Source of the DNA: an uncultured Gammaproteobacteria bacterium
Lineage (GTDB): Bacteria; Patescibacteriota; Microgenomatia; Levybacterales; UBA12049
NCBI GenBank assembly: GCA_964408825.1
Contig: CAYPAU010000005.1
Location: forward strand, 1 to 39,990
Direction of reading: 5' to 3'
DNA length: 39,990 bases
In this document: piece by piece, positions 4,304 through 37,621 of the stretch
Layout: the number at the start of each line of letters is the position of its first letter
How positions within the stretch are numbered: position 1 is the stretch's first letter
Notes under the pieces: generated by a model
What the model saw: the letters and a program-made list of their open reading frames with translations, nothing else
Told to the model about the DNA's origin: nothing
Database searches by the model: none
Position numbers and translations under genes: made by a program

Positions 4304-4654
4304 ATGTCGAGAATAAAAAGAGGAGTAGTATCCAAAAGAAAACATAAAAAAATCCTAAAGCTTACTAAAGGGTATAAAGGAACAAAAAGAAAACTCATAA
4401 GGGTGGCCAAAGAAGCAGAGCTTCACGCAAGAAGCTATGCTTATCACGGAAGGAAACTTAGGAAGAGAGACTTTAGAAGCCTTTGGATTACCCGAATAGG
4501 GGAGGCAGCAAAAAGGCAGGGTATGTCTTACAGTGTGTTTATGAATAAGCTTAAGAAGGGAAAGATCGACCTTGACAGAAAAATATTGAGTGATCTTATT
4601 GTAAACGATCCCCCAACTTTCCAAAAAATTGTAGATTCAGTAAGAAATGTTTAG
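4304..4654 (+). CDS. rplT: Ribosomal protein L20
   Basis: N-terminus MSRIKRGVVSKRKHKKILKLTKGYKG, 116 aa, expected synteny. Confidence 0.93.
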   Translation: MSRIKRGVVSKRKHKKILKLTKGYKGTKRKLIRVAKEAELHARSYAYHGRKLRKRDFRSLWITRIGEAAKRQGMSYSVFMNKLKKGKIDLDRKILSDLIVNDPPTFQKIVDSVRNV

Positions 4655-4677: not shown

Positions 4678-4705
4678 CCTGCCTTGCCGGCAGGCAGGCC
4701 TTTTT
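4678..4705 (+). terminator. Rho-independent terminator-like hairpin CCTGCCT...AGGCAGG plus TTTTT
   Basis: 7-bp GC-rich stem at 4678-4698 followed by CCTTTTT, downstream of rplT. Confidence 0.6.
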
Positions 4706-8587: not shown

Positions 8588-10941
8588 GGTCCGGGGATAA
8601 GTGGAGTAGGTGTTGGGGTAGGGCTCGGGGTTGGCGTTGGGGTTGGATTATTTTCTTCCTTCTTAGATTCTCCCGTATATCCTGAAGTTTCTGTGGGCGG
8701 ATGGTATTTCTCATCACCGGCATACTGGCCCGAGAGCCATGCACTTATCCCCTCCTGCCATCTATTTTTTCCATCAGTTGAGACAGGATCATCTTCGTGG
8801 AAAACAATATAATCTTTTGTGTCATATTCTTTATTTTCTATTTCCCAGGGGCTTGCAAGCTTACCCGAATCATGCCTTGACATTTTTACTTTTTGATAAA
8901 TATTTCCCGACCCGATCGGCTCCGTCCCTTTTATAAAGTACTCGGATCTTGTCGGCTGACCTCCTACAGGCAACCCTCCGCCTAAAGCATCTATTTCAAG
9001 AGCAATAACGCTATCGGGTTTTTTGGGAGATTCGTCTTTTTTACCTTCTAAAACAAAACTCATTACCCTGTTCCAGATAGGAGAGGCACCAGTTGCGCCT
9101 GATGCAATTGTAGGGTTCATTGGACTATTATCGTTATTTCCCACCCAAATCCCTACGACGAAAGAAGGTGTGTATCCAACGGCCCAGTTGTCTCTCTTCT
9201 GATCTGTTGTACCAGTTTTTACGGATACAGTTTTCCCCGGAATATTAAGATATGACCTTGTACCAAAAATCAGTGATCTCGCATTATTGTCTAAAAGAAT
9301 ATGAGAGATAAGAAAAGCAACTCCTTCGGATAAAACTCTTTCTCCGTTTTTCTTCTTATGTTCAAAGAGTTTTTTTCCTTTACTGTCGGTTACCTTAAGT
9401 ATTATAACCGGATTTTGTTTAACACCTTGATTGGCAAATACCGAATATGCGACGGCCTCATCAAGAAGAGATGTTTCTCTCCCTCCAAGAACAAGAGATA
9501 ATCCTACGTCTTTAAGATTTTCCGCTGTCGGCTCCCAGTTTTCTATTCCCATTGAATAACCTTTTTGCATTACGTCTTTTATGCCGACTCTTGCAAGCGT
9601 TTTGACTGCGGGGACGTTGATTGAATTACCTAAGGCAAATCTTATTTGCATAGGACCCCTAAATTTTCCATCATAATTTTCCGGGGTATATATGGGATGG
9701 GCGGCTTCATTTGTGGGAAAATCAGTTTTAACATCTATAAGGAGAGTCGATGGAGTATAACCTTTTTCAAAAGCTGTCGCATAAACAACAGGCTTTAAGG
9801 AAGACCCGGGTTGCCTCCTTGCTAAAGCAGTATTGAAATTTCCGTCATTATCTTCATCGAAATAATCCTTACTTCCTACCATCGACAAAATTTCTCCAGT
9901 CTTTGGATCCATGACAACTGCTGCTCCGTTTCCCACCCGATATCCCTTAAGCTTTTCAATCTCTTCTCTTACAATTTTTTCTGCCTCCTTTTCTATTTCG
10001 TAGTCGAGTGTAGTTGTTACCTGAAGACCTCCTTGCTCAACAGCTGATTCCCCAAACTGTTTTGCTAAAAGCTGTTTTACATAAATAACAAAATGAGGAG
10101 CCTTTATACTCTCGTCTCTTTTTGTGAATTTTTTATTTTTTATCTCAGAAAGCGCCTTTTCTTTCTCTTCTTTTGTTATGTATTTCTCATCAACCATCTG
10201 CTTCAATACCGCCTCGGTTCTCCCTATGTAGTATTTATTTCCTGAATAAGGAGAGTAGATGCTTGGAGATTGAGGCAAACCTGCAAGAAAAGCACTTTCC
10301 GCAAGATTTAAATCTCTTACATCCTTGCCAAAGTAGCTTTGAGCGGCTGCCTCAACTCCGATATTTGCTCCCCCATACGGAACATCATTTAAGTACATTT
10401 CAAGAATTTGGTCTTTTGAATATCTCTGATTAACCTGAATAGCAAGCATTAATTCCTTGATTTTTCGAGGAACAGTTTTTTCCGATGAGAGAAGAACTGT
10501 TTTAACAAGCTGTTGCGTAATTGTCGAACCACCCGTTAATCCTTTAAAAAGAAGAATGTCTCTTATTGCGCGGATGTAGCCAAAAATTGAAAAACCTTGG
10601 TTTTTATAAAAATCCCTATCTTCTATTGCGATCGTCGCTTCTTTAAGATTCTGTGGAATATCCGAAAGTTTTACATAGGTTCTGTTCTGATCCTGATAAA
10701 CAGAGTAGAGGAGGACACCTTTTCTGTCATAGATTCTTGTTGAATTTGCAAGCTGGGCATCTATTAATTTGCCGGGAGTGGGCAGATCTTTACCATACCA
10801 AAGAAATAAAACTATTGTAAGCAAAACCAAACCAATAAATCCGAGGAGTGCGTATCTTGAAAGCTTTGAGTAGAGAAGAATTTTGGAGTAATTACTTTTT
10901 CTAAACCTTGTCCTTCGACTGCGTCTTGCGTAATCAACCAT
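8584..10941 (-). CDS. Class A penicillin-binding protein (glycosyltransferase plus transpeptidase) with a C-terminal Pro/Thr tail
   Basis: N-terminal TM, GT51 motifs (EDRDFY, GGSTITQQ), transpeptidase SSLKP and KTGTT, and the tail PTPTPTPSPTPTPTP. Confidence 0.92.
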   Translation of the reverse strand: MVDYARRSRRTRFRKSNYSKILLYSKLSRYALLGFIGLVLLTIVLFLWYGKDLPTPGKLIDAQLANSTRIYDRKGVLLYSVYQDQNRTYVKLSDIPQNLKEATIAIEDRDFYKNQGFSIFGYIRAIRDILLFKGLTGGSTITQQLVKTVLLSSEKTVPRKIKELMLAIQVNQRYSKDQILEMYLNDVPYGGANIGVEAAAQSYFGKDVRDLNLAESAFLAGLPQSPSIYSPYSGNKYYIGRTEAVLKQMVDEKYITKEEKEKALSEIKNKKFTKRDESIKAPHFVIYVKQLLAKQFGESAVEQGGLQVTTTLDYEIEKEAEKIVREEIEKLKGYRVGNGAAVVMDPKTGEILSMVGSKDYFDEDNDGNFNTALARRQPGSSLKPVVYATAFEKGYTPSTLLIDVKTDFPTNEAAHPIYTPENYDGKFRGPMQIRFALGNSINVPAVKTLARVGIKDVMQKGYSMGIENWEPTAENLKDVGLSLVLGGRETSLLDEAVAYSVFANQGVKQNPVIILKVTDSKGKKLFEHKKKNGERVLSEGVAFLISHILLDNNARSLIFGTRSYLNIPGKTVSVKTGTTDQKRDNWAVGYTPSFVVGIWVGNNDNSPMNPTIASGATGASPIWNRVMSFVLEGKKDESPKKPDSVIALEIDALGGGLPVGGQPTRSEYFIKGTEPIGSGNIYQKVKMSRHDSGKLASPWEIENKEYDTKDYIVFHEDDPVSTDGKNRWQEGISAWLSGQYAGDEKYHPPTETSGYTGESKKEENNPTPTPTPSPTPTPTPLIPGP

Positions 10942-10957: not shown

Positions 10958-10963
10958 AAAACC

Positions 10964-10996
10964 AGTTGCCAGTGGCTAGTTGCTAGTGGCTAGTGT
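10964..10996. repeat. Heptamer tandem repeat (AGTKGCY)n, CTAGT-word family
   Basis: agttgcc agtggct agttgct agtggct agtg. It lies in the PBP/tyrS divergent spacer. A related array is at 31751-31785. Confidence 0.85.
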
Positions 10997-15275: not shown

Positions 15276-17363
15276 ATGAATCTTGACAAATCGGTCAAAA
15301 GCATGGGCGGTATTTACAAAAAATATGCCGGCCGTCTTGAAAAACTCGGAATAATAAAACTTGAAGATTTTCTCTATCACATCCCTTTTCGCTACGAAGA
15401 TTACTCTCTAATTTCCAAGATAAACAAAGTTCAGGCAGGAGAGACAGTGACCATACAGGGTAAAATTTCGGAGATAAAAAATGAATACACAAGAAGATGG
15501 AAAAATCTTCAAAAAGCAAGGGTTAGGGATAAATCCGGAACTATAGATATAATTTGGTTTAACCAACCCTTTATTCCAAAAATCTTAAAAAAGAACGACC
15601 GCGTCTCTCTCTCCGGAAGGGTAAAACAATATCTAGGAAAAAATATCCTGGAATCCCCGGAATATGAAACTTTAAACGAGCAAACTATTCATACGGGAAG
15701 ACTCATCCCCATCTACAGCGAAACCCGAGGCATCTCGTCCAAATGGATAAGAAAACAAATACATAATTTAATTAGGGAACATAGGGATGAGTTCAAGGAA
15801 TATCTTCCCGATGAAATTCTTAGTATAAATAACTTTTTAAATTTTAAGAATGCTATTGAGCAAATACATTTTCCTTCTTCAAAAAAAAATGCAGAACTTG
15901 CCCGGGAAAGACTTTCCTTCGATGAACTTTTTCTTCTTCAGCTTAAGAGTATGATTAAGAAAGCGCAGTGGAAGAAGAAAAAAGCTTCCAATGTTTTTGA
16001 GGTTTCAAAATTCAGAGAAGAAATCGGAGAGTTTTTAGAAAAACTTCCTTTTAAACTAACCAATTCTCAAAAAAAAGCAGTCGAGGATATTTTAAAAGAC
16101 CTGAAATCAAAAAAACCAATGAACAGACTTCTGGAAGGAGACGTCGGATCGGGTAAAACTGTGGTTTCAGCAATTACAATGTATTTATCCTTTTTAAACG
16201 GGTTCCAGTCAGTTTTGATGGCACCCACAGAAATTCTCGCACAACAACACTACAAGACAATTTCTGATTTATTAAACCCTTTTGGAGTAAAAGTCGGTTT
16301 AGTAACAGGATCAAAGAAATGGAAAATGCTCGCCCCGCGAAGCTTGGACGAAGCGGGGGAAAATGCTCGCCCCGCGAAGCTTGGACGAAGCGGGGGAAAA
16401 TGGAAAATCGATATCCTTGTCGGTACTCACGCTGTAATTTACGGAAAATTAAATTTTGAAAACTTAGGACTTGTTGTGATAGATGAACAGCAAAGGTTTG
16501 GTGTAAAACAGAGATCTCAGCTACGCAACAGAGGGAAAAATCCTCATCTTCTAACGATGACCGCAACTCCGATACCAAGAACCGTTGCACTTGTCATTTA
16601 TGGAGAACTGGATGTCTCATTTCTTTCTGAAATGCCCCATGGACGAAAAACAGTAAAAACATGGCTTGTGCCCGAAGAAAAAAGAGAAAATGCATATGTT
16701 TGGATCGAAAAAGAAATAAAAAACACGAATTCACAAGCATTTATAATTTGTCCTTTTATAGAGGAATCTGAAACCATGGTTTCAGTCAAAGCCGCAACCA
16801 AAGAATTTGAAAGGCTTAAAAAAAACGTTTTTCCAAGATTAAAACTCAAACTTCTGCATGGAAAACAAAAAAGTGAGGGAAAAGAGGAAATCTTAAATGA
16901 TTTTAAAAAGGGGACGGTGGATATACTTGTCGCAACACCGGTCGTTGAAGTTGGTATTGACATTCCCAATGCAACAATAATGCTTGTTGAAGCCTCAGAA
17001 AGATTTGGCCTTTCGCAACTTCATCAACTCAGAGGAAGAGTGGGCAGGAGTGATAAACAATCTTATTGTCTTTTATTTACGGATTCAAAAAACGAAAAAA
17101 CGCTCAAGAGATTAAAGAGTATGGAAAGCATTAACGTGGGCGCGCAATTGGCAGAGCTTGATTTAAAACTCAGAGGACCGGGCGAAATCTACGGAACATC
17201 TCAGCACGGAATTCAGGCTCTTAAAATCGCGTCATTTTCCGATTTTTCTGGAATTGAAAAATCCAGAAAAGAAGCAGAGGCCATTTTACCCAAATTTAAA
17301 AAATATCCAATGCTTCTTAACAAAATAAAGTCCGAAAACCTCGCCGAAATCTCTCCCGATTGA
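15276..17363 (+). CDS. recG: ATP-dependent DNA helicase RecG
   Basis: OB wedge domain, helicase motifs GDVGSGKT, DEQQRFG, TATPIPRT and QLRGRVGR. 695 aa. It contains an in-frame repeat insert. Confidence 0.92.
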   Translation: MNLDKSVKSMGGIYKKYAGRLEKLGIIKLEDFLYHIPFRYEDYSLISKINKVQAGETVTIQGKISEIKNEYTRRWKNLQKARVRDKSGTIDIIWFNQPFIPKILKKNDRVSLSGRVKQYLGKNILESPEYETLNEQTIHTGRLIPIYSETRGISSKWIRKQIHNLIREHRDEFKEYLPDEILSINNFLNFKNAIEQIHFPSSKKNAELARERLSFDELFLLQLKSMIKKAQWKKKKASNVFEVSKFREEIGEFLEKLPFKLTNSQKKAVEDILKDLKSKKPMNRLLEGDVGSGKTVVSAITMYLSFLNGFQSVLMAPTEILAQQHYKTISDLLNPFGVKVGLVTGSKKWKMLAPRSLDEAGENARPAKLGRSGGKWKIDILVGTHAVIYGKLNFENLGLVVIDEQQRFGVKQRSQLRNRGKNPHLLTMTATPIPRTVALVIYGELDVSFLSEMPHGRKTVKTWLVPEEKRENAYVWIEKEIKNTNSQAFIICPFIEESETMVSVKAATKEFERLKKNVFPRLKLKLLHGKQKSEGKEEILNDFKKGTVDILVATPVVEVGIDIPNATIMLVEASERFGLSQLHQLRGRVGRSDKQSYCLLFTDSKNEKTLKRLKSMESINVGAQLAELDLKLRGPGEIYGTSQHGIQALKIASFSDFSGIEKSRKEAEAILPKFKKYPMLLNKIKSENLAEISPD
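16323..16396 (+). repeat. Tandem 2 x 37-nt GC-rich hairpin repeat inside recG
   Basis: The unit AAAATGCTCGCCCCGCGAAGCTTGGACGAAGCGGGGG is identical at 16323-16359 and 16360-16396. It is flanked by AAATGGAAAAT at 16317 and 16398, 81 nt apart. Confidence 0.95.
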
Positions 17364-24355: not shown

Positions 24356-25747
24356 TTAATAATTTCTGACTGTAATCGAGGTCTGAAAAGAGACAGAGGC
24401 TTGATTTTCAGAAAGAGTGCTGCTGCCTTTTGAGATGTTTGCTAAAGTAAAACTGATTGTTATAGTAGGCGGTGAAACTATGCTTTCCTGCCTGCAGGTA
24501 ATCGAGCAGGAAGTGACGCGAACGGAATTTGTATCAACGAGTTTTGTAGTCAAACCGCCGCTGATTGAGGCTATTTGACCATTTTCATCATCTGCCCCGG
24601 GCGTCCCGGACGCAGGAAGACACGAGAAGATCGTTTGCCCGCCGTCAAATGCTGTTACCTTAATGTACTTATAAGCCGGGGCAGGCGTCGGGGACGGACC
24701 CGGAGTAGGGGAAGGGGTGGGAGTAAGAGTTGGAGTGGGAGTAGGAGTAGAGGTCGGAGTAGGAGTAGAGGTTGGCGGGGGCGGAGTATAATATATTGTT
24801 GCGGTAATTTGATCTATGTAAACACTTAAGCCTGTAGAGGCTTGATCGGCATATAGGGAAACACCAAAATTACTGGCTCTAATCTCAGTAGCGCTCCAAG
24901 ACGTCTCTCCCCAGAGATAAGTACCGCTACCGAAAACAAAAAGCTGATCCGAGGTATTTGAAATTGTCAAAGTCTGGGTATTGCCGGTTATTACTCCGGC
25001 TTTTATAGGAGATATAACAAGACGCACCGATCCGGTATTTACTTTCCCCTCGACCTGAAATGAGATGCCCTCAATGGTTGACCCGTCAGGAACGCTTCCC
25101 GGATCAAGATTAAAGCGGAAATCTGTCCCCTTTAGATAGTGAGTTTCTGCTCCCGGATTTAAGGTCTCTTTACCTGTAGAAACATACTTATTATCGCTAG
25201 TTTTAATTTCCGCAGGCTTATCCCAGTTAATAGTACCCGTTGCTCTGGTTGCAGTTGTTGCAGAATTAGGAAATTTCTGAGTCGAGACTGCGGCAGCGAC
25301 ATCCTGCTTAGGACCAGTCTCTCTTATTCCAAATTTTGGAATTAAACTCGCCAAAAAAGATACAGTCTTCTTCCCCAAATTCCGGAGTCGCAAAGTAAAA
25401 CCCTGAGGCTCTTTTTCTGCAATTTCCTTAGGATTTGAGAATGTGATAGGCGCGGTACAATTTTTTGCATAGCTTTCTACAAGGAGGGGATTCGAATCCA
25501 TGCTTACGCCGTCAAAAGATCTTGAGTACTTTATCATTCTTCCCATCTGCTCAATCGCATAATTCCCGTTTCTTCTTACTGTATCAAGAGAGCTTGCCTT
25601 ATTTGATCCCCGAAGAGAAGAGAAGAGAATTCCAACCACCATACTTCCGATCACCATAACAACAATTATCACAACCAGAAGCTCGATTAGGGTAAACCCA
25701 TTCTTTAATTTAAAATTTGAAATTTTAAATTTTAAATTCATCGTCAT
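24356..25747 (-). CDS. Large modular type IV pilin-like protein (463 aa) with an inserted beta-rich module and a Pro/Thr linker
   Basis: Class III signal KLKNG/FTLIELLVV, the linker PPPPTSTPTPTSTPTPTPTLTPTPSPTPGPSPTPAP, and a Cys-containing C-terminal segment. Confidence 0.75.
   Translation of the reverse strand: MTMNLKFKISNFKLKNGFTLIELLVVIIVVMVIGSMVVGILFSSLRGSNKASSLDTVRRNGNYAIEQMGRMIKYSRSFDGVSMDSNPLLVESYAKNCTAPITFSNPKEIAEKEPQGFTLRLRNLGKKTVSFLASLIPKFGIRETGPKQDVAAAVSTQKFPNSATTATRATGTINWDKPAEIKTSDNKYVSTGKETLNPGAETHYLKGTDFRFNLDPGSVPDGSTIEGISFQVEGKVNTGSVRLVISPIKAGVITGNTQTLTISNTSDQLFVFGSGTYLWGETSWSATEIRASNFGVSLYADQASTGLSVYIDQITATIYYTPPPPTSTPTPTSTPTPTPTLTPTPSPTPGPSPTPAPAYKYIKVTAFDGGQTIFSCLPASGTPGADDENGQIASISGGLTTKLVDTNSVRVTSCSITCRQESIVSPPTITISFTLANISKGSSTLSENQASVSFQTSITVRNY
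25704..25738. repeat. Heptamer array (TNAAATT x5) encoding the signal-peptide start of the large pilin
   Basis: tttaatt taaaatt tgaaatt ttaaatt ttaaatt. The coding strand gives MTMNLKFKISNFKLKNG. Confidence 0.8.
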
Positions 25748-26271
25748 GGATAGACCGGCGTAATGGGTTTAAAAAAACACGATGTGAGAGAAACCTTATG
25801 CCAAAATTGACTGACACTCGGACACTTTCCGTCTGACCATTTTACAGTAGACGTCACCCTACCGTTATTTGGGACTGCTGGAGTTGGTGTTACGCCGCAT
25901 ACGTTTTGCTCTACTCTTAGTTCTCTGACGAAAATTCCTACGTTTTGGGGGCAACTTTGTCCGGCAGGAAGCGGAGTAGGAACAACGCCTCCCTGGGGAA
26001 GACAGTAGTAATTGCTGTATCCTGAAAAAGTTCCCCAATTTGACTGAGAAGTGTTACGCAGAACATCCAGTCCCTCTTGCGCAAATTGAGTCGCCTGATT
26101 TTGGTTTATTCCGAACTGCTCATTTGAAAGAGATGAGATAACTACCGCAACAATTGCAGACATTATAAGTGTTGCCGCTCCCAGGGCAACCATTACCTCC
26201 AAAAGTGTCTGTCCACTCTGAACTTTTAACAATTTAACAATGTAGCAATTTAACAATTTCTTTTTACTCAT
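25744..26271 (-). CDS. Minor pilin-like protein (degenerate prepilin signal G/QTLLEV)
   Basis: KVQSG/QTLLEVMVALGAATL and a 4-nt overlap with neighbours on both sides. Confidence 0.65.
   Translation of the reverse strand: MSKKKLLNCYIVKLLKVQSGQTLLEVMVALGAATLIMSAIVAVVISSLSNEQFGINQNQATQFAQEGLDVLRNTSQSNWGTFSGYSNYYCLPQGGVVPTPLPAGQSCPQNVGIFVRELRVEQNVCGVTPTPAVPNNGRVTSTVKWSDGKCPSVSQFWHKVSLTSCFFKPITPVYP
26224..26259. repeat. Octamer array (ATTTAACA-like x4) in the 5' end of the minor pilin ORF
   Basis: ttttaaca atttaaca atgtagca atttaaca. It encodes LLNCYIVKLLK. Confidence 0.75.
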
Positions 26272-26852: not shown

Positions 26853-27354
26853 AAAAAGCAGTTCCAGATATATTTGGGTCTGAGTCGTTCTGATTTTCTA
26901 TACAAGCGGTAAGAGTATAGGATCCGCTTGAGTAGCTATAAATATAGTCACCATAGGTCATAGCATCACCGGAGGAAACATCGTAAACGGATTTATTTGG
27001 ATCACAAGGAGGCTTGGACATATAGGTAGTTGCATTATAGACAGCGGGCGAGGTGGGAGGACAATGAGTAGAGTAAAAAATTGTCTTAAATGAGCTACTG
27101 TCCGGATAGCTTCCTTGATCTGAACGGTAGAATTCAAGGGCCGCTTGAATCTGCCGTAAGTCGGATTTTCTTTGACTGTCTCTTGCTCTTTGTCTTACTC
27201 CGATAAAGTTGGCAAAAAGAACGCTTGCAAGAACTCCGATAATTGCAACTGCAATAAGAAGCTCAATCAGGGTAAAACCAGATCTACAATTGACAATTGA
27301 CAATTGACAATTGACAATTTTTTTGATTTTTGAACGCCACAAGCCTGAATTCAT
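26812..27354 (-). CDS. Type IV pilin / T2SS GspG-like pseudopilin
   Basis: NCRSG/FTLIELLIAVAIIGVLA, then RDSQRKSDLRQIQAALEFY. Confidence 0.8.
   Translation of the reverse strand: MNSGLWRSKIKKIVNCQLSIVNCRSGFTLIELLIAVAIIGVLASVLFANFIGVRQRARDSQRKSDLRQIQAALEFYRSDQGSYPDSSSFKTIFYSTHCPPTSPAVYNATTYMSKPPCDPNKSVYDVSSGDAMTYGDYIYSYSSGSYTLTACIENQNDSDPNISGTAFCVSPNRQYVLKNP
27286..27319. repeat. Heptamer array (ACAATTG x4.9) inside the pilin signal-peptide coding region
   Basis: The coding strand has ATTGTCA x4, giving IVNCQLSIVNC. Confidence 0.9.
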
Positions 27355-27385: not shown

Positions 27386-28003
27386 TCATGGTGTTATATT
27401 CGCGCTTGTCACACCGTAATTGCACTGAAAACCTGTCCCGCACCCGTCCGCCGTAACCCTCCCGTTTGCATTTGCACATGGGATTGAAGTACATGCTTGG
27501 GTATCAAGACTTCCTCGCTCAAGAGACGCATAGATTGCATAAGATTGTCCATCACTGTATGCCCAATAGGCATAACTTCTTCCAGTTTTTGGATCTTTCG
27601 GGAGTTTTGTTTTGTATGAATCCCAATAACTACCCCAGTTTTGACAACCAGATGGGGGATTGATTCTGTATAGCTCTGTAGCAGAGCATCCAGGAAGTAC
27701 GGCTCCTGTGTTATGTGGAGGATATTTGCCATTATCGTTGTAATATGCCTCAAGAGTCCTTTGAAGTTGGGAAAGATCCGATTTTCTTTGCGAGTCGTTT
27801 GCTTTCTTAAACTGTTCAAGCGGATTAATTATGACTATTACTCCGCTTGTTATAACGCTTAAGACTCCTATTACTATCAGAAGTTCAATAAGAGTAAACC
27901 CAGATGAGTTAGTTGTTCCCCAAAGAAGAGACTTAAAAAAGTTCCCAAAACTAAAAAGGGGCCGAAAGGAATTTTTCCCCCGGGCAGCTTCTTTTTTCCC
28001 CAT
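27386..28003 (-). CDS. Type IV pilin with a long (35-aa) leader
   Basis: TNSSG/FTLIELLIVIGVLSV, then NDSQRKSDLSQLQRTLEAYY. The only in-frame start is ATG 28003, which lies 127 nt inside pilD. Confidence 0.75.
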   Translation of the reverse strand: MGKKEAARGKNSFRPLFSFGNFFKSLLWGTTNSSGFTLIELLIVIGVLSVITSGVIVIINPLEQFKKANDSQRKSDLSQLQRTLEAYYNDNGKYPPHNTGAVLPGCSATELYRINPPSGCQNWGSYWDSYKTKLPKDPKTGRSYAYWAYSDGQSYAIYASLERGSLDTQACTSIPCANANGRVTADGCGTGFQCNYGVTSANITP

Positions 28004-28737
28004 ATAACTAGTATGATGCCTACTGATGCACCTGTCAAGAACGCCAGATAAAAAGCGCCTACAATAAGTGGGAAGCCAAGAAAAAGTCCCATTAAAAACG
28101 CGAGTTTCACATCCCCAAAGCCCATACCCTTACCTTTTGTAATCAAAAAAAGTATAAGAAGAAAAATAAATGCCCCAAAAGCAGAAAGGAGATAATTGCT
28201 GAATTGTTGAATGGTTAAATTGTTGAAATCAAATGGTAAATGGAAAATGGTAAATGGAAAATGGTAAATTACTGAGACTACGACTGCAGGATAAACGATC
28301 TTATCAGGAATAATTCCATATTTTAAATCAGTAAAAAAAATAACTGTCAAACTCGAGGCAATGAAAAGATAATAGAAAAGATCTATTGTTACATTGCTGA
28401 ATTGTTGAATTGTTAAATTAAATGGAAAATGGAAAATGGCAAATGGCAAATTATTTAGTTTAAGAACATAAAGATAAATGATAATAAATATTAACCCTGT
28501 CAAAATCTCAACCAAGGGGTAGTAAAACGAAATAAGGGAGTGGCAATGCCGGCATTTTCCTTTCAGAATCAAAAAGGACAAGACCGGGATCATATCAAAC
28601 CATCTAAGATTTTTTTTGCAGTTATCACAATAAGATCTTCCTCTAAAAACCTGCTCACCATGAGGAATCCTGTCAACAAGAACGTTTAGAAAACTCCCTA
28701 CACAAACTCCTAGAATAAAGAGAAACAATAGCGCCAT
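27877..28737 (-). CDS. pilD: Prepilin peptidase / N-methyltransferase (A24 family)
   Basis: CxxC...CxxC zinc motif and the catalytic Asp contexts DLKYGIIPD and GMGFGDVKL. ATG 28737 is preferred over TTG 28752 because TATAAT lies 6 nt upstream. Confidence 0.9.
   Translation of the reverse strand: MALLFLFILGVCVGSFLNVLVDRIPHGEQVFRGRSYCDNCKKNLRWFDMIPVLSFLILKGKCRHCHSLISFYYPLVEILTGLIFIIIYLYVLKLNNLPFAIFHFPFNLTIQQFSNVTIDLFYYLFIASSLTVIFFTDLKYGIIPDKIVYPAVVVSVIYHFPFTIFHLPFDFNNLTIQQFSNYLLSAFGAFIFLLILFLITKGKGMGFGDVKLAFLMGLFLGFPLIVGAFYLAFLTGASVGIILVIWGKKKLPGGKIPFGPFLVLGTFLSLFFGEQLTHLGLLLLNF
28195..28269. repeat. Composite repeat copy A inside pilD: ATTGCTGAATTGTTGAAT-GGTTAAATT module plus (AAATGGW)x5.5
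   Basis: Seen directly in the sequence. It encodes ...YHFPFTIFHLPFDFNNLTIQQFSN. Confidence 0.9.
28393..28451. repeat. Composite repeat copy B inside pilD: ATTGCTGAATTGTTGAAT-TGTTAAATT module plus (AAATGGM)x4.5
   Basis: Seen directly in the sequence. It encodes ...LPFAIFHFPFNLTIQQFSN. Confidence 0.9.
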
Positions 28738-28743
28738 GAAACA

Positions 28744-28749
28744 ATTATA
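28744..28749 (-). promoter_or_regulatory. -10 box TATAAT (minus strand), 6 nt before pilD ATG 28737
   Basis: The minus strand reads cTTGTATAATtgtttcATG. Confidence 0.45.
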
Positions 28750-28821
28750 CAAGATCTAAGATTTCCGAATTTTATAAAGAAGTTAAATATAAAGGTTTAC
28801 TTATTAGGGTTAAGGTTAAGA

Positions 28822-29442: not shown

Positions 29443-29460
29443 GGGGGCAAATTGAGGCTA

Positions 29461-29482
29461 ATTATTAGTTATTAGTTATTTT
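29461..29482. repeat. Heptamer array (ATTAGTT x2.5) spanning the pilC stop codon
   Basis: att attagtt attagtt atttt. Confidence 0.7.
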
Positions 29483-35664: not shown

Positions 35665-36420
35665 ATGGGGAATGATAAATTGAAAATGGAAAATCAAAAA
35701 CCGAATGTTTTTGTCCTGCATGGCTGGAGTTATTCTGTTGATCAATGGAAGCCTTTCATATCTGCTCTAAAAAAAATAAAATTAAAACCTGTCCTTCTTA
35801 AAATCCCCGGCTTAACAGATGAGATAAGAAATCCATGGGCGCTTGATAATTATATAGACTGGCTTTTTGATGAAGTCAAAGATGAAGGAAAAATAATATT
35901 AATAGGCCATTCAAACGGAGGACGAATTGCCATGGCTTTTGCTTTAAAATACCAGGATAAAGTTTCAAAGCTGATTTTAATTGACAGCGCCGGAATTTAC
36001 CACGATGATATTATCATAAAAATTAAAAGATTGATCTTTAGATCTATTGCGAAAACAGGAAAAAAAATTATCCCTTCGCAAGCTACCAGAAACTTTTTGT
36101 ATTTCCTAACAGGAGAGAGTGATTATAAAAACGCAAATGAAATTATGCGAGAAACTATGATAAATCTAATTGAGGCAGATAAAACTTTGGGAATAGAAAA
36201 AATACTCGCTCCTACTATTATAATATGGGGGGAAAATGACAGAGTAACTCCGCTTTCAGATGCAAGACTATTAAACAAAGGAATAGTCAATAGTAAATTA
36301 TTTGTAGTTAATAATGCCCGACACTCTCCACAGTTTACCCATCCACATGAAGTCGTAAAAATCATTTTTAACAACCTGCCTGCCGCCCGCCTGCCGGACG
36401 GGCAGGGCAGACAGGTTTAA
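35665..36420 (+). CDS. Alpha/beta hydrolase
   Basis: Nucleophile GHSNGG, WGENDRVTP, and His in ARHSPQ. The last 13 or so codons are encoded by a GC-rich hairpin element. Confidence 0.75.
   Translation: MGNDKLKMENQKPNVFVLHGWSYSVDQWKPFISALKKIKLKPVLLKIPGLTDEIRNPWALDNYIDWLFDEVKDEGKIILIGHSNGGRIAMAFALKYQDKVSKLILIDSAGIYHDDIIIKIKRLIFRSIAKTGKKIIPSQATRNFLYFLTGESDYKNANEIMRETMINLIEADKTLGIEKILAPTIIIWGENDRVTPLSDARLLNKGIVNSKLFVVNNARHSPQFTHPHEVVKIIFNNLPAARLPDGQGRQV
36374..36418 (+). repeat. GC-rich imperfect palindrome (CCTGCC...GGCAGG family) plus T-run at the 3' end of the hydrolase gene
   Basis: AACCTGCCTGCCGCCCGCCTGCCGGACGGGCAGGGCAGACAGGTTT. It shares its core with the hairpins at 4271 and 4678. Confidence 0.7.
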
Positions 36421-36430
36421 CAATTTTATT

Positions 36431-37621
36431 ATGTCTATTTTTAATTCACTCGGTTCAAACTATGATTTTAAATTTGTTTTAAAGACACTGCTTTCTGTTG
36501 GGGGAGAATCGGAAAAGCGAAAACTAAAAGAAACTCTGAGAAGAAAATATAAGGGGGAAGTATTATTGTTCTATAAGGGTAGAGAAGCTCTAACTTTTGC
36601 TCTAAAGTCTTTGTCTCTTCCGGAAGAATCGAAGACTGCCATTAACGGATTTACGTGTTATGCAGTTTATAAAGCCGTTGAGGAAGCCGGTCTAAAACCA
36701 GTCTTACTTGACATCGACGACAGCCTGAATTTTTCTCCGGAAAAACTTAAAAGTATCATAGAATCTTCGGATATCAAGGTTGTCATCGTACAAAATACGC
36801 TGGGGTACATATGTGAAATAAAAGAAATTGCAAAAATTTGTAAAAAAAATAATATTATTCTTATTGAAGATTTGGCTCATTGTGTTGGGACAAATTACGA
36901 AAACGGAGAAGAAGCGGGGACAGTTGGCGATTTCGTAGTGTTTTCTTTCAGCCAAGACAAAATGGTTGACGGAATATCGGGTGGAGCATTAATTGCAAAA
37001 ATTCAAAATTCAAAATTCAAAATTCAAAATTATTCCTACCCACAGTTTTCAGTACAGATCAAGAATCGGCTTTATCCGCTACTTACATTTATAATTCGGT
37101 CAGCTTACGATTTTGGTTTGGGTAAATTACTCCACTACTTTTTGAAAAAATCGAACATGCTTTCAACACCCATGGACGATTCGTTATATGGAACGCTAAA
37201 TCTTTCAGACTTCTATCAATCACTAGTAATGGAATCTTTTAATAATCTTAAAGGAGACTTGGAACATCGGAAAAAGATCGCAAAAATTTATAAAAATAAT
37301 CTGCCCTCTAAAATATTATTTGAAAAAATTACTTCTCAAATAGAAAATTCCTCAAATCTTCGTTTTCCAATTTTTGTAGAAAACCGAGACAAGCTGTTAA
37401 AATTCTTAAAAAGTAAAGGTTTTTATATTTCGGACATCTGGTATGATGCGCCAATTTCTCCAAAAAGATTTATGCAAAAAATTGAATATGCAGGAGATTG
37501 TCCCAATGCTGAGGAGATTTCTGAAAGAATTTTAAACTTACCGACACACAAAAACATTTCGGAAAAACAAGCGTTAAAATTGGCAAAATATATAAATAAT
37601 TTCTTAATTCATAATTCTTAA
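36431..37621 (+). CDS. DegT/DnrJ/EryC1/StrS-family PLP aminotransferase (amino-sugar biosynthesis)
   Basis: Family layout with the PLP lysine context FSFSQDK. It contains an in-frame heptamer-repeat insert. Confidence 0.85.
   Translation: MSIFNSLGSNYDFKFVLKTLLSVGGESEKRKLKETLRRKYKGEVLLFYKGREALTFALKSLSLPEESKTAINGFTCYAVYKAVEEAGLKPVLLDIDDSLNFSPEKLKSIIESSDIKVVIVQNTLGYICEIKEIAKICKKNNIILIEDLAHCVGTNYENGEEAGTVGDFVVFSFSQDKMVDGISGGALIAKIQNSKFKIQNYSYPQFSVQIKNRLYPLLTFIIRSAYDFGLGKLLHYFLKKSNMLSTPMDDSLYGTLNLSDFYQSLVMESFNNLKGDLEHRKKIAKIYKNNLPSKILFEKITSQIENSSNLRFPIFVENRDKLLKFLKSKGFYISDIWYDAPISPKRFMQKIEYAGDCPNAEEISERILNLPTHKNISEKQALKLAKYINNFLIHNS
36998..37032. repeat. Heptamer array (AAAATTC x5) in frame inside the aminotransferase gene
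   Basis: It encodes KIQNSKFKIQN immediately after GGALIA. Confidence 0.9.

Follow-up and report, generated by a model that had tools for sequence, protein, structure and literature searches.

The window, as we call the whole stretch of 39,990 nucleotides that was analysed, carries an intact recG gene encoding 695 amino acids. The product contains the Pfam domains RecG_wedge, DEAD, Helicase_C and RecG_dom3_C and matched RecG of T. maritima (1GM5) with E = 5e-147, and its homologues in a protein search were RecG proteins of Levybacteria. In the part encoding the first RecA-like domain, in the interval from TGS to GTHA, the gene contains a perfect tandem repeat with TGS on one side and ILVGTHA on the other, and the open reading frame runs through it uninterrupted. 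The coordinates originally given for the two copies of this repeat (16323-16359 and 16360-16396) were right according to both the sequence and TRF, which reported a period of 37 nt, 2.2 copies, 100% matches and a score of 164 at 16321-16402. The 37-nt period stands, but the repeated entity is a 30-nt core and not a 37-mer, the extra 7 nt being one unit of a heptamer array. The following features were identified:

15276-17363, + strand: recG coding sequence, 695 aa, intact host gene (open reading frame list, Pfam, 1GM5 match, homologues)
16315-16409, + strand: composite insert, a five-unit heptamer array broken by two cores (sequence, TRF)
16322-16328, + strand: heptamer unit h1, GAAAATG, directly 5' of core 1 (sequence)
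16329-16358, + strand: core copy 1, CTCGCCCCGCGAAGCTTGGACGAAGCGGGG, 30 nt, frame LAPRSLDEAG (nhmmer with the family profile, E = 2e-8)
16333-16358, + strand: predicted core 1 hairpin, stem CCCCGC 16333-16338 / GCGGGG 16353-16358, 14-nt loop (fold predictions)
16359-16365, + strand: heptamer unit h2, GAAAATG, separating core 1 and core 2 (sequence)
16366-16395, + strand: core copy 2, the identical 30-mer, frame ARPAKLGRSG (nhmmer, core scan)
16370-16395, + strand: predicted core 2 hairpin, stem 16370-16375 / 16390-16395 (fold predictions)
16396-16409, + strand: heptamer units h3 (GAAAATG) and h4 (GAAAATC), 3' of core 2 (sequence)

The composite insert codes for about K348-K377 of RecG, and the predicted peptide stretch across the region is MLAPRSLDEAGENARPAKLGR. 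Its array units are AGAAATG, GAAAATG (three times) and GAAAATC. Allowing up to three mismatches, the core occurred exactly twice in the window, whereas none of 100 dinucleotide shuffles gave a match, and the CCCCGC...GCGGGG arrangement was present at these two sites of the window only. As had been claimed, each of the two copies is translated in a frame of its own. The core has no stop codon in any of the six frames, each of which gives a peptide rich in Pro, Arg, Gly, Ala and Ser. This openness was considered as a sign of adaptation and dropped, because 27% of shuffled cores were likewise open in six frames.

The 11-mer AAATGGAAAAT indeed occurs at 16317 and 16398, 81 nt apart. Its two copies, taken in the original prediction for the flanks of the insert, are units of the array and not a clean target duplication. 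The proposed kinship with the pilD inserts holds, as AAATGGA is a permuted GAAAATG, the heptamer that also makes up the pilD arrays. Deletion of both cores alone leaves the array KKWKMENGKWKID, which is the likely pre-insertion state, core-free as in two homologues (P0004 and P0116). An ancestor produced by precise excision of 81 nt, giving KKWKID, was considered and set aside because relatives carry the array without cores.

The RecG segment at the insert site varied from 7 to 41 aa among 120 homologues. In RecG of T. maritima and E. coli an unrelated segment of about 16 aa takes this place, most Levybacteria have a short loop, and the core is absent from this site in most relatives, which bears out the view of a lineage-specific insertion. 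Insert-bearing and empty states were interleaved in a neighbour-joining tree, and the nearest relatives of the window RecG (P0002 and P0003) have no array. In the AlphaFold model residues 349-375 had pLDDT values below 50 and formed coil between strands 340-343 and 380-383. The insert is therefore predicted to be a disordered 27-residue loop, at a hypervariable, structurally permissive site. Since the frame of the host gene is preserved, the insert is probably translated.

A dispersed core family in heptamer arrays

When 185,579 genomes were scanned for an exact 19-mer, six Levybacteria loci were recovered, three of them in one genome; four further matches in GC-rich genomes were taken as chance. 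A metagenome scan for the core yielded 25 loci, of which about 19 were low in GC. The search for other copies that had been suggested thus found the core dispersed over 16 non-redundant sites, in Levybacteria and in low-GC contigs related to them, with at most three differences from the consensus (CTCGCCCCGCGAAGCTTGGGCGAAGCGGGG). Long open reading frames contained 14 of the 16 sites. The host genes identified by Pfam were RecG, PGK, L10, RecJ, FemAB, NAD(P)HX dehydratase, TrpRS, LepA, HrcA and DUF2298, together with three GT4-like glycosyltransferases, two of them recognised by Pfam and the third (L032) by sequence similarity only. In all, the same 30-mer was present in at least 13 genes besides recG.

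Across the family the core was read in five of six frames and in both orientations (8 forward and 3 reverse to transcription in subfamily A), and none of the 14 intragenic copies broke its host reading frame. Because the sites were sampled by DNA pattern, there was no bias towards intact reading frames. The same 30-mer in five frames of different genes also upholds the earlier proposal that the DNA, and not the peptide, is the conserved entity. Genomes carried only a handful of copies, the exact scan finding at least three sites in one genome. With the nhmmer core profile, 125 kb of sequence from unselected loci yielded no additional copy, and 315 kb yielded no decayed one. A blastn search with the other GC cores found at the recG site (L003 and L004) and with two other window palindromes gave no more full-length matches in the collected loci; one partial relative was seen in pheS of L001. 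Neither a transposition intermediate nor a polymorphic empty/filled pair from one population was seen among the recovered loci. The core family is thus low-copy, dispersed in Levybacteria and neighbouring Microgenomates, and patchy in its phylogenetic distribution.

Subfamily A cores were always flanked by heptamer arrays of GAAAATG, GAAATTG, AAAAATT or TCACTCA. The window holds far more heptamer arrays than expected (7 against 0.05); the arrays comprise about 4.6-5.6 units and lie in frame within coding loops. In recG the array has five units with two cores (window), one core (L001) or none (P0004/L005): the core-free relative reads KKWKMVNGKWKFD, and the one-core relative without its core reads KKWKMKNEKWKMD. 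The single core of the latter gene (L001/P0008) has the array position and frame of core copy 2 in the window. In PGK, removal of the two cores leaves KQFPISNFQFPKENEEF, and a core-free PGK (P0217) reads QQFSIFNFQFSKENEEF. The insert is 51 nt long with one core and 81 nt with two. As relatives with no core or one core share the array architecture, each core is a net addition of 30 nt, or ten codons. LepA (L034) is different in that the core fills a native loop with no net change in length, and is a replacement rather than an insertion.

The layout unit-core-unit-core-unit-unit was found also in PGK (identical in L007, L028 and L039, with a variant in L035), and the two-core layout also in a glycosyltransferase (L030, identical to L033); these PGK and glycosyltransferase loci come from independent assemblies. 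The two units that border a core match one another and are sometimes unlike the remaining units of the array (L001, L011, L015 and L037). They resemble a 7-bp target duplication, or flanks copied along with the core; bare insertion of 30 nt would leave them unexplained.

The core was 28/30 identical between the window and L001, whereas the two recG genes had 72% DNA identity and 55% at third positions of conserved residues. It was near-identical across genomes whose RecG proteins share only 64-69% identity, although the exact-match patterns used in the search bias core identities upwards. In PGK, with flanks 93% identical between L035 and L028, copy 2 of one strain has taken on the letters of copy 1 at three linked sites, a concerted pattern that is best explained by conversion between the tandem copies.

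Hairpin potential and motifs of the core

The minimum-energy fold predicted for the core was a 6-bp stem with a 14-nt loop, and the proposed CCCCGC...GCGGGG hairpin thus stands as a predicted fold. It is modest, however: folded as RNA or DNA, it was no more stable than composition-matched shuffles (z = -1.0 to -1.7), so no claim of structure is made from energy. The core variants held no compensatory pairs; all changes were G/C-to-A/T transitions, some yielding G-T pairs, and no covariance model was built for this reason. An Rfam E-value search of positions 16100-16600 gave no match, and neither did a scan of viral contigs for the core. Type I-E CRISPR repeats have the same CCCCGC/GCGGGG stem. 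Identity with such a repeat was dismissed, since its spacers would have a length of only 7 nt, an array is lacking and there is no further similarity. At one family locus (L023) core-like hairpins adjoin tRNA 3'-end repeats.

The family consensus contains GCGAAGC twice. Each window core has it once (16337-16343 in core 1 and 16374-16380 in core 2), the second one being mutated to ACGAAGC, which in core 1 lies at 16348-16354. As DNA, GCGAAGC forms a mini-hairpin of unusual stability, and it has been reported at origins of replication and transcription (PMC13037366). The window copies fit the GCGNAGC mini-hairpin pattern, with terminal G-C pairs intact, and may form the mini-hairpin in vivo.

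The passenger reading and its alternatives

We consider it probable that the supposed 2 x 37-nt repeat consists of two 30-nt GC-rich imperfect palindromes lying in (GAAAATG)5, which belong to a dispersed Levybacteria/Microgenomates family and are carried as a translated passenger in a permissive RecG loop. On the best reading the core is a tiny translated passenger that is apparently mobile. The original prediction already likened the block to a miniature insertion element tolerated in a surface loop, and the core behaves as one. At the DNA level it would be a selfish or neutral passenger, which can persist in essential genes and be translated because it has no stops in any frame and adds ten codons. 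Copying into heptamer arrays might proceed by a single-strand, hairpin-dependent reaction without target duplication, or by transfer of unit-core-unit from array to array. The second recG core may stem from a second +30 event or from local copying, and not from slippage of 37 nt.

We propose more tentatively, as a possibility rather than an expectation, that Levybacteria and related CPR harbour an undescribed class of 30-nt mobile GC-rich palindromes that specifically colonise heptanucleotide arrays in essential genes, are copied there with a gain of exactly ten codons and no net target duplication, and are kept near-identical, across species with saturated synonymous sites in the orthologous genes, by active sequence-specific machinery or by horizontal spread, arrays and cores together forming a major engine of CPR loop-length variation. 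Literature searches on CPR and Levybacteria repeats, and on repeats more broadly, gave no earlier description of such CPR repeats.

The low copy number and the lack of decayed copies in the 315 kb are odd for a purely neutral parasite, and with the near-identity across genomes they could reflect selection on the sequence itself. The core might then be a selected cis-acting DNA or RNA signal (for binding or processing, replication or priming, recombination, or a polymerase or ribosome pause) that permissive loops merely accommodate. The copies are 90-100% identical across genes and genomes while synonymous sites of the hosts are saturated, and both the paired GCGAAGC of the consensus and the hairpins beside tRNA 3'-end repeats in L023 would suit such a role. 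We nevertheless think it unlikely: the host genes are unrelated, the core stands in both orientations to transcription and is missing from the same site in most relatives, the second GCGAAGC is already altered in both window cores, and Rfam held no match. Its patchiness and low copy number also speak against a genome-wide signal of the uptake-sequence kind.

Neither 7 nor 37 is a multiple of three, and gain or loss of a unit would shift the frame, so that slippage could in principle switch recG on and off as a contingency locus modulating recombination and repair; the enrichment of heptamer arrays in the window would agree with this. Such switching is very improbable, since arrays and cores also occur in the essential PGK, L10, TrpRS and LepA genes, where an OFF state would be lethal, the arrays have only about five units, and all alleles recovered by the DNA pattern search were in frame.

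Purely local duplication or expansion of a lineage-specific loop segment, with no mobility, would account for two perfect copies lying side by side at a period of 37 nt, but the occurrence of the same 30-mer in other genes already contradicts it. A 37-nt copying step would shift the frame and alter the unit count, which is the same in alleles with no, one or two cores; slippage of 37 nt was rejected on these grounds as the source of copy 2, and the repeat expansion offered in the original prediction is scarcely tenable.

We give equally little credence to removal of the insert from expression, by ribosomal bypass between the AAATGGAAAAT copies as take-off and landing sites or by excision at the RNA or protein level. 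Direct repeats 81 nt apart do flank GC-rich hairpins in an AT-rich mRNA, a geometry loosely like that of bypass elements (bioRxiv 10.1101/2022.08.31.505936). Past the putative take-off site, however, there is no stop codon or frameshift, and the cores lie in both orientations. All 14 intragenic members were in frame and stop-free although sampling was blind to frame, a constraint expected only if the insert is translated. Finally, an assembly artefact is hardly conceivable: this recG (P0001) was matched by protein search solely on the window's own contig and its two-core state is known from that single assembly of the locus, but recG would be broken by collapse to one 37-nt unit and is in frame as assembled, and independent assemblies from several samples show the identical architecture at two other genes.

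Read as a passenger element, the core family is of interest because the spread of repeats far smaller than transposons that bind a transposase is poorly understood. It offers a clean system, with a sharp-ended 30-nt core, heptamer landing arrays and exact +30-nt steps, and has the advantage of alleles with zero, one and two cores at one site and of tiny host genomes that ease the search for a partner enzyme. For CPR annotation and evolution it means that seemingly lineage-specific loops in RecG, PGK, L10, RecJ and aminoacyl-tRNA synthetases can be passenger DNA and not functional innovation; the same protein loops are hit repeatedly.

Comparison with known repeat systems

MITEs have terminal inverted repeats and a target-site duplication of fixed length, and mostly exceed 50 bp. 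Compared with them, the core is 30 nt long with an inverted repeat of only 6 nt, and its flanking heptamers are identical, like a 7-bp duplication, yet the unit count stays flat as the number of cores rises. The core and intragenic REPs are both short (20-40 nt) GC-rich imperfect palindromes, the core having 30 nt and a 6-bp stem. REPs have a candidate mobilising enzyme, the Y1/HUH transposase RAYT; to our knowledge none is known for cyanobacterial small dispersed repeats (SDRs). Intragenic REPs (repetitive extragenic palindromes) are tagged by GTAG or CGTC, may lie wholly within open reading frames as singles or dimers, the dimers encoding 20-30 aa, and are often found in replication and repair genes; different REPs occupy about the same recB site in two Xanthomonas species (PMC3733652). 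No such tag was present at the termini of the core, which read CTCG...GGGG or CCCC...CGAG depending on the strand. Whereas REPs occur in hundreds per genome, mostly extragenic and in inverted doublets, the core copies found were a handful per genome, mostly intragenic (14/16) and in direct doublets. The core differs from REPs also in the embedding of subfamily A in heptamer arrays and in its CPR hosts.

Rickettsia palindromic elements (RPEs) resemble the core as palindromic repeats lying in frame, compatibly with the protein fold, in unrelated housekeeping genes (PMC10969869), as do the 14 intragenic cores that keep their reading frame open. RPEs, however, are about 100-150 bp long and each has a conserved family-specific peptide in one frame, whereas the core has 30 nt and a peptide that varies with frame and orientation over five frames. 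The two are unrelated in sequence and lineage. Mitochondrial GC clusters, byp elements and the T4 gene 60 bypass element are likewise short hairpin-forming insertions, rich in GC within an AT-rich coding sequence and with matching codons on either side. These are skipped by the ribosome or break the frame, whereas the core keeps the frame everywhere and is most likely translated; the recG insert has 27 codons and is free of stops in six frames.

Cyanobacterial SDR4-6 of Elhai et al. 2008 are reportedly hairpin-forming mobile repeats of 21-27 nt nested in tandem heptameric repeats (STRR arrays). SDR5 inserts precisely at a fixed position of HIP1 (Elhai, PMC4390886). Among long simple-sequence repeats, heptamers are reported to be the commonest class in most bacterial genomes, with polymerase slippage as the proposed cause (PMC4679880); the arrays of the core family differ from other bacterial heptanucleotide repeats in being landing places for GC-rich cores as well. 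The core shares with the SDRs its very small size, its hairpin and its association with heptamer arrays, a likeness drawn from general descriptions of SDRs. It differs from them in the phylum of its hosts, in its length of 30 nt and in lying mostly inside essential coding genes, while nesting in heptamers and presence or absence at orthologous sites, both features of the SDR type, were seen in the core family.

The repeat in recG and its unit

Reading of the sequence showed that positions 16317-16409 follow the order AAATG-GAAAATG-core-GAAAATG-core-GAAAATG-GAAAATC, the core being CTCGCCCCGCGAAGCTTGGACGAAGCGGGG. TRF on the window returned 16321-16402, with a period of 37 nt, 2.2 copies and 100% identity. 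The repeat is real, and the original prediction was correct in its coordinates, its two reading frames and its flanking 11-mers 81 nt apart. Allowing up to 3 mismatches, the 40-kb window has no core outside the two recG places, and 100 shuffles gave none. The GC content of the insert is about 65%, as compared to 38% for the window. The recG host ORF (15276-17363, 695 aa) is intact, has RecG wedge, DEAD and Helicase_C domains, and aligns with T. maritima RecG 1GM5 at E = 5e-147. The 1GM5 counterpart of the insert, TPSEKEKIKSGLRNGQ (residues 456-471), is unrelated to it in sequence.

The recG locus L005 (protein P0004) carries heptamers alone, AAATGGA AAATGGT AAATGGA AAATGGA, translated KKWKMVNGKWKFD. 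In L001 (P0008) an array of the same type holds one core (GCTCGCCCCGCGAAGCTTGGGCGAAGTGGGG), translated NARPAKLGRSG. Deletion of both 30-nt cores from the window array gives KKWKMENGKWKID and deletion of the single L001 core gives KKWKMKNEKWKMD, so that window, L001 and L005 all have five array units. Each core is therefore a net addition of 30 nt, and the remaining 7 nt of the predicted 37-nt unit are one array unit. The flanking 11-mers likewise turned out to be units of the array, which core-free L005 also has, and the ancestor proposed from precise excision between them has to be revised, since removing only the cores leaves a five-unit array comparable to L005. Window core 2 and the L001 core have identical array position and frame.

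The 120 closest RecG homologues came from Candidatus Levybacteria and other Patescibacteria. Their segment from TGS to (I/V)LVGTHA ranges over 7-41 aa and was short in 63 (typically QKTKIKDFD), intermediate in 24 and long in 33. In the AlphaFold model (51 homologues) residues 349-375 are coil with pLDDT below 50, between strands 340-343 and 380-383. By this prediction the insert forms a disordered loop, which would be surface-exposed. The idea of a miniature element in a tolerant loop stands. In other lineages the same site is taken up by another 30-nt GC core with a 14-nt direct repeat on its two sides (L003), by a GC core that has inverted heptamer arrays around it (L004), or by inverted heptamer arrays and nothing else (L041, L042). 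Comparison of window and L001 recG gives identities of 72% (DNA), 69% (protein) and 55% (third positions of conserved residues), and the core is identical at 28/30 positions. Identical 30-mers are shared by genomes with RecG only about 64-69% identical to that of the window, a resemblance inflated by the use of exact-match patterns in the search. In a neighbour-joining tree that leaves out the variable segment, the closest relatives of the window protein (P0002, P0003) are without the array, the array-only P0004 and the one-core P0008 are more distant, and in other parts of the tree long inserts are mixed in with the short form. This distance tree fits repeated gain and loss at a recG hot spot.

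The core is predicted to fold into a 6-bp stem with a 14-nt loop at -6.7 kcal/mol (DNA) or -11.6 kcal/mol (RNA), energies not significant against shuffles. Its family consensus contains GCGAAGC twice, the second copy reading ACGAAGC in the window. As DNA, GCGAAGC folds into a mini-hairpin of exceptional stability (Tm 76.5 C), which nearest-neighbour models miss (PMC13037366). No stop codon is present in any of the six frames of the 37-nt unit or of the GGAAAAT and GGAAATT arrays, an openness equalled by 27% of shuffled cores, and Pro, Arg, Gly, Ala and Ser abound in all six core translations. No Rfam family was found for the core region, and the core had no match in viral contigs.

Core copies in other genes and genomes

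Genome and metagenome scans revealed further copies. A scan with CTCGCCCCGCGAAGCTTGG of one genome per species gave 6 Levybacteria loci, of which one genome accounted for 3, and a further four matches in GC-rich genomes that we took to be chance. A degenerate 22-mer detected 25 loci in metagenome contigs, about 19 of them low-GC. After removal of duplicates 16 sites remained, 14 of them inside long ORFs.

Host genes of the intragenic core sites
RecG: two sites (window, L001)
PGK: one site
FemAB: one site
GT4-like glycosyltransferases: three sites (two by Pfam, the third, L032, by sequence similarity only)
Ribosomal protein L10: one site
RecJ: one site
NAD(P)HX dehydratase: one site
DUF2298 membrane protein: one site
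TrpRS: one site
LepA: one site
HrcA: one site

Cores occur in both orientations and five of six frames, which upholds the view that the conserved entity is the DNA, and none of the 14 intragenic sites interrupts its host ORF. Because sites were collected by DNA pattern, a frame-blind sampling, this lack of broken ORFs argues strongly, at the sequence level, that inserts are translated and out-of-frame events purged. Subfamily A (5' end CTCGCC) always lies within heptamer arrays (GAAAATG, GAAATTG, AAAAATT, and TCACTCA in one glycosyltransferase), and subfamily B (5' flank CCTGC/T) is without arrays.

Single-core inserts measure 51 nt (30 + 3 x 7) in L001 recG, FemAB, L10 and a glycosyltransferase. 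The double-core inserts of recG, of PGK and of a glycosyltransferase measure 81 nt (60 + 21) and share the layout unit-core-unit-core-unit-unit. PGK is a second independent test of this arithmetic: the loop after GHLGRP spans 7-38 aa in 120 homologues, many of which are array-only (e.g. QQFSIFNFQFSKENEEF), and a core-bearing PGK with its two 10-residue cores removed reads KQFPISNFQFPKENEEF. Two PGK loci (L035 821-887, L028 2979-3045) have 93% identical flanks and differ in copy 2 at three linked positions, where it matches copy 1 in one genome and the family consensus in the other. This is the pattern expected from conversion between copies, which would likewise account for the two recG cores being perfectly identical.

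Several related motifs were also seen. The apparently orthologous glycosyltransferases L032 and L011 have heptamer arrays at the same N-terminal site with different cores, canonical in L011 (LAPRSLGEAG) and KKWKMENAMPVGRQGKWKI in L032, which has an additional canonical core further downstream. Other GC-rich core families occupy the same hot spots in PGK homologues P0137, P0160 and P0228 and in recG L004; SLRPELRPRG (PGK) is similar to SLRPELRARAR (recG), and PHFARASRGR (PGK) to the reverse-frame translation of the canonical core. On a 67% GC non-CPR contig (L020 1348-1420) the same 22-nt hairpin motif has the heptamers ATGGTTC and ATGGGCG directly after it. It lies upstream of an ORF that by eye resembles a tRNA adenosine deaminase, or inside the N-terminus of that ORF; this may be chance or an association reaching beyond CPR. 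In L023 (973-1345) three partial repeats of the 3' end of a tRNA-Gly(CCC) gene (CCCGCTCCA) come after that gene. Core-like hairpins (1062-1090, 1303-1332) precede repeats one and three, and a different, T-arm-like GC-rich segment precedes repeat two. These may be integration remnants at the tRNA or tRNA-like minihelices.

How cores may be gained

Cores are placed at array unit boundaries, and a core has the same unit on either side even where the rest of the array differs:
L001: AAAAATG-core-AAAAATG
L015 and L037: AAAATTG-core-AAAATTG
L011: AAAAATT-core-AAAAATT

Two models fit the observations. In the first, a unit-core-unit tract would be copied between arrays by conversion or template switching and would take the place of two resident units. 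Such copying would account for the net 30 nt, for flanks that match and for the preferred use of GAAAWTG arrays, but not for the core hosted by an array of unrelated sequence, TCACTCA, which grew from a native CTCATCACTCAT seed encoding LITH. In the second, the core would insert via a single-stranded DNA hairpin, without duplication, into arrays exposing single strands, by a chemistry like that of IS200/IS605 or REP-RAYT. With a simple duplication of a 7-bp target, every core should add a unit to the array and shift the reading frame, which is not observed. In LepA (L034 286-315) a subfamily B core encodes PAPRSLGEVGT in the native loop IPPP-QGDS-QAPLRAL with a length change of 0 against 60 homologues; here the core has replaced native sequence rather than been added to it.

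Other repeats in the window and known systems

The window has 7 heptamer arrays of about 3-5.6 units each, against 0.05 expected under a first-order Markov model. Most of the heptamer and octamer arrays are in frame inside ORFs.
Heptamer arrays: 10962-10995, 25707-25738, 27286-27319, 28231-28269, 28420-28451, 29459-29480, 36998-37031
Octamer arrays: 26225-26259, 28393-28419

A PilD-like prepilin peptidase (27877-28752, minus strand) carries similar composite in-frame inserts at 28190-28275 and 28385-28455, each an AAATGGA/AAATGGT heptamer array plus a AATTGTTG octamer array, encoding NNLPFAIFHFPFNLTIQQFSN (aa 99-122) and IYHFPFTIFHLPFDFNNLTIQQFSN (aa 162-187). They share their heptamer with the recG array and have no GC core. 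In the pilus gene cluster, arrays 25707-25738, 26225-26259 and 27286-27319 lie in the N-terminal regions of three ORFs, in two of which the array is just upstream of a G/FTLIE-type prepilin cleavage motif (e.g. MTMNLKFKISNFKLKNGFTLIE), in the part removed by PilD. A 41-nt nested GC-rich palindrome, CCTGCCTGCCGCCCGCCTGCCGGACGGGCAGGGCAGACAGG (36375-36415), has the 8-nt direct repeat TTTAACAA on its two sides. An alpha/beta-hydrolase ORF (35665-36420) ends in this palindrome, which supplies its last 14 codons and its stop. The centre of the palindrome has a 95% identical copy inside pheS of L001 (4092-4111), and that hairpin, GCTCGCCTGCCGAACGGGCAGGGG, has the ends GCTCGCC...GGGG, as in the recG core. 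Palindrome CCTGCCTTGCCGGCAGGCAGG (4678-4698), followed by a T-run downstream of ORF 4304-4654, looks like an intrinsic terminator and has CCTGCC/GGCAGG arms in common with the 36375 element. Hexamer and 18-mer repeats at 8612-8646 and 24702-24772 encode Pro-Thr-rich linkers (PTPTPTPSPTPT...), one at a penicillin-binding protein C-terminus and the other in ORF 24356-25747, and are ordinary low-complexity sequence.

Among long simple repeats, heptamers are reported to be the most frequent in the majority of bacterial genomes (PMC4679880). Intragenic REPs have been documented as dimers encoding 20-30 aa, with a repair-gene bias and recurrent sites (PMC3733652), whereas the Levybacteria core is without a GTAG/CGTC tag, low-copy and seated in heptamer arrays. 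RPEs also lie in-frame within genes (PMC10969869), an habit common to both, but measure about 150 bp as compared to 30 nt for the core. We found no description of such elements in the literature on CPR bacteria. Nostoc SDR elements nested in heptamer repeats, reportedly described by Elhai in 2008, would be the closest analogy. The core is an already known sort of thing in a new form, a very small palindromic repeat apparently translated inside genes. Its relationship to heptamer arrays is unusual and well defined, and its copies remain alike across divergent genomes.
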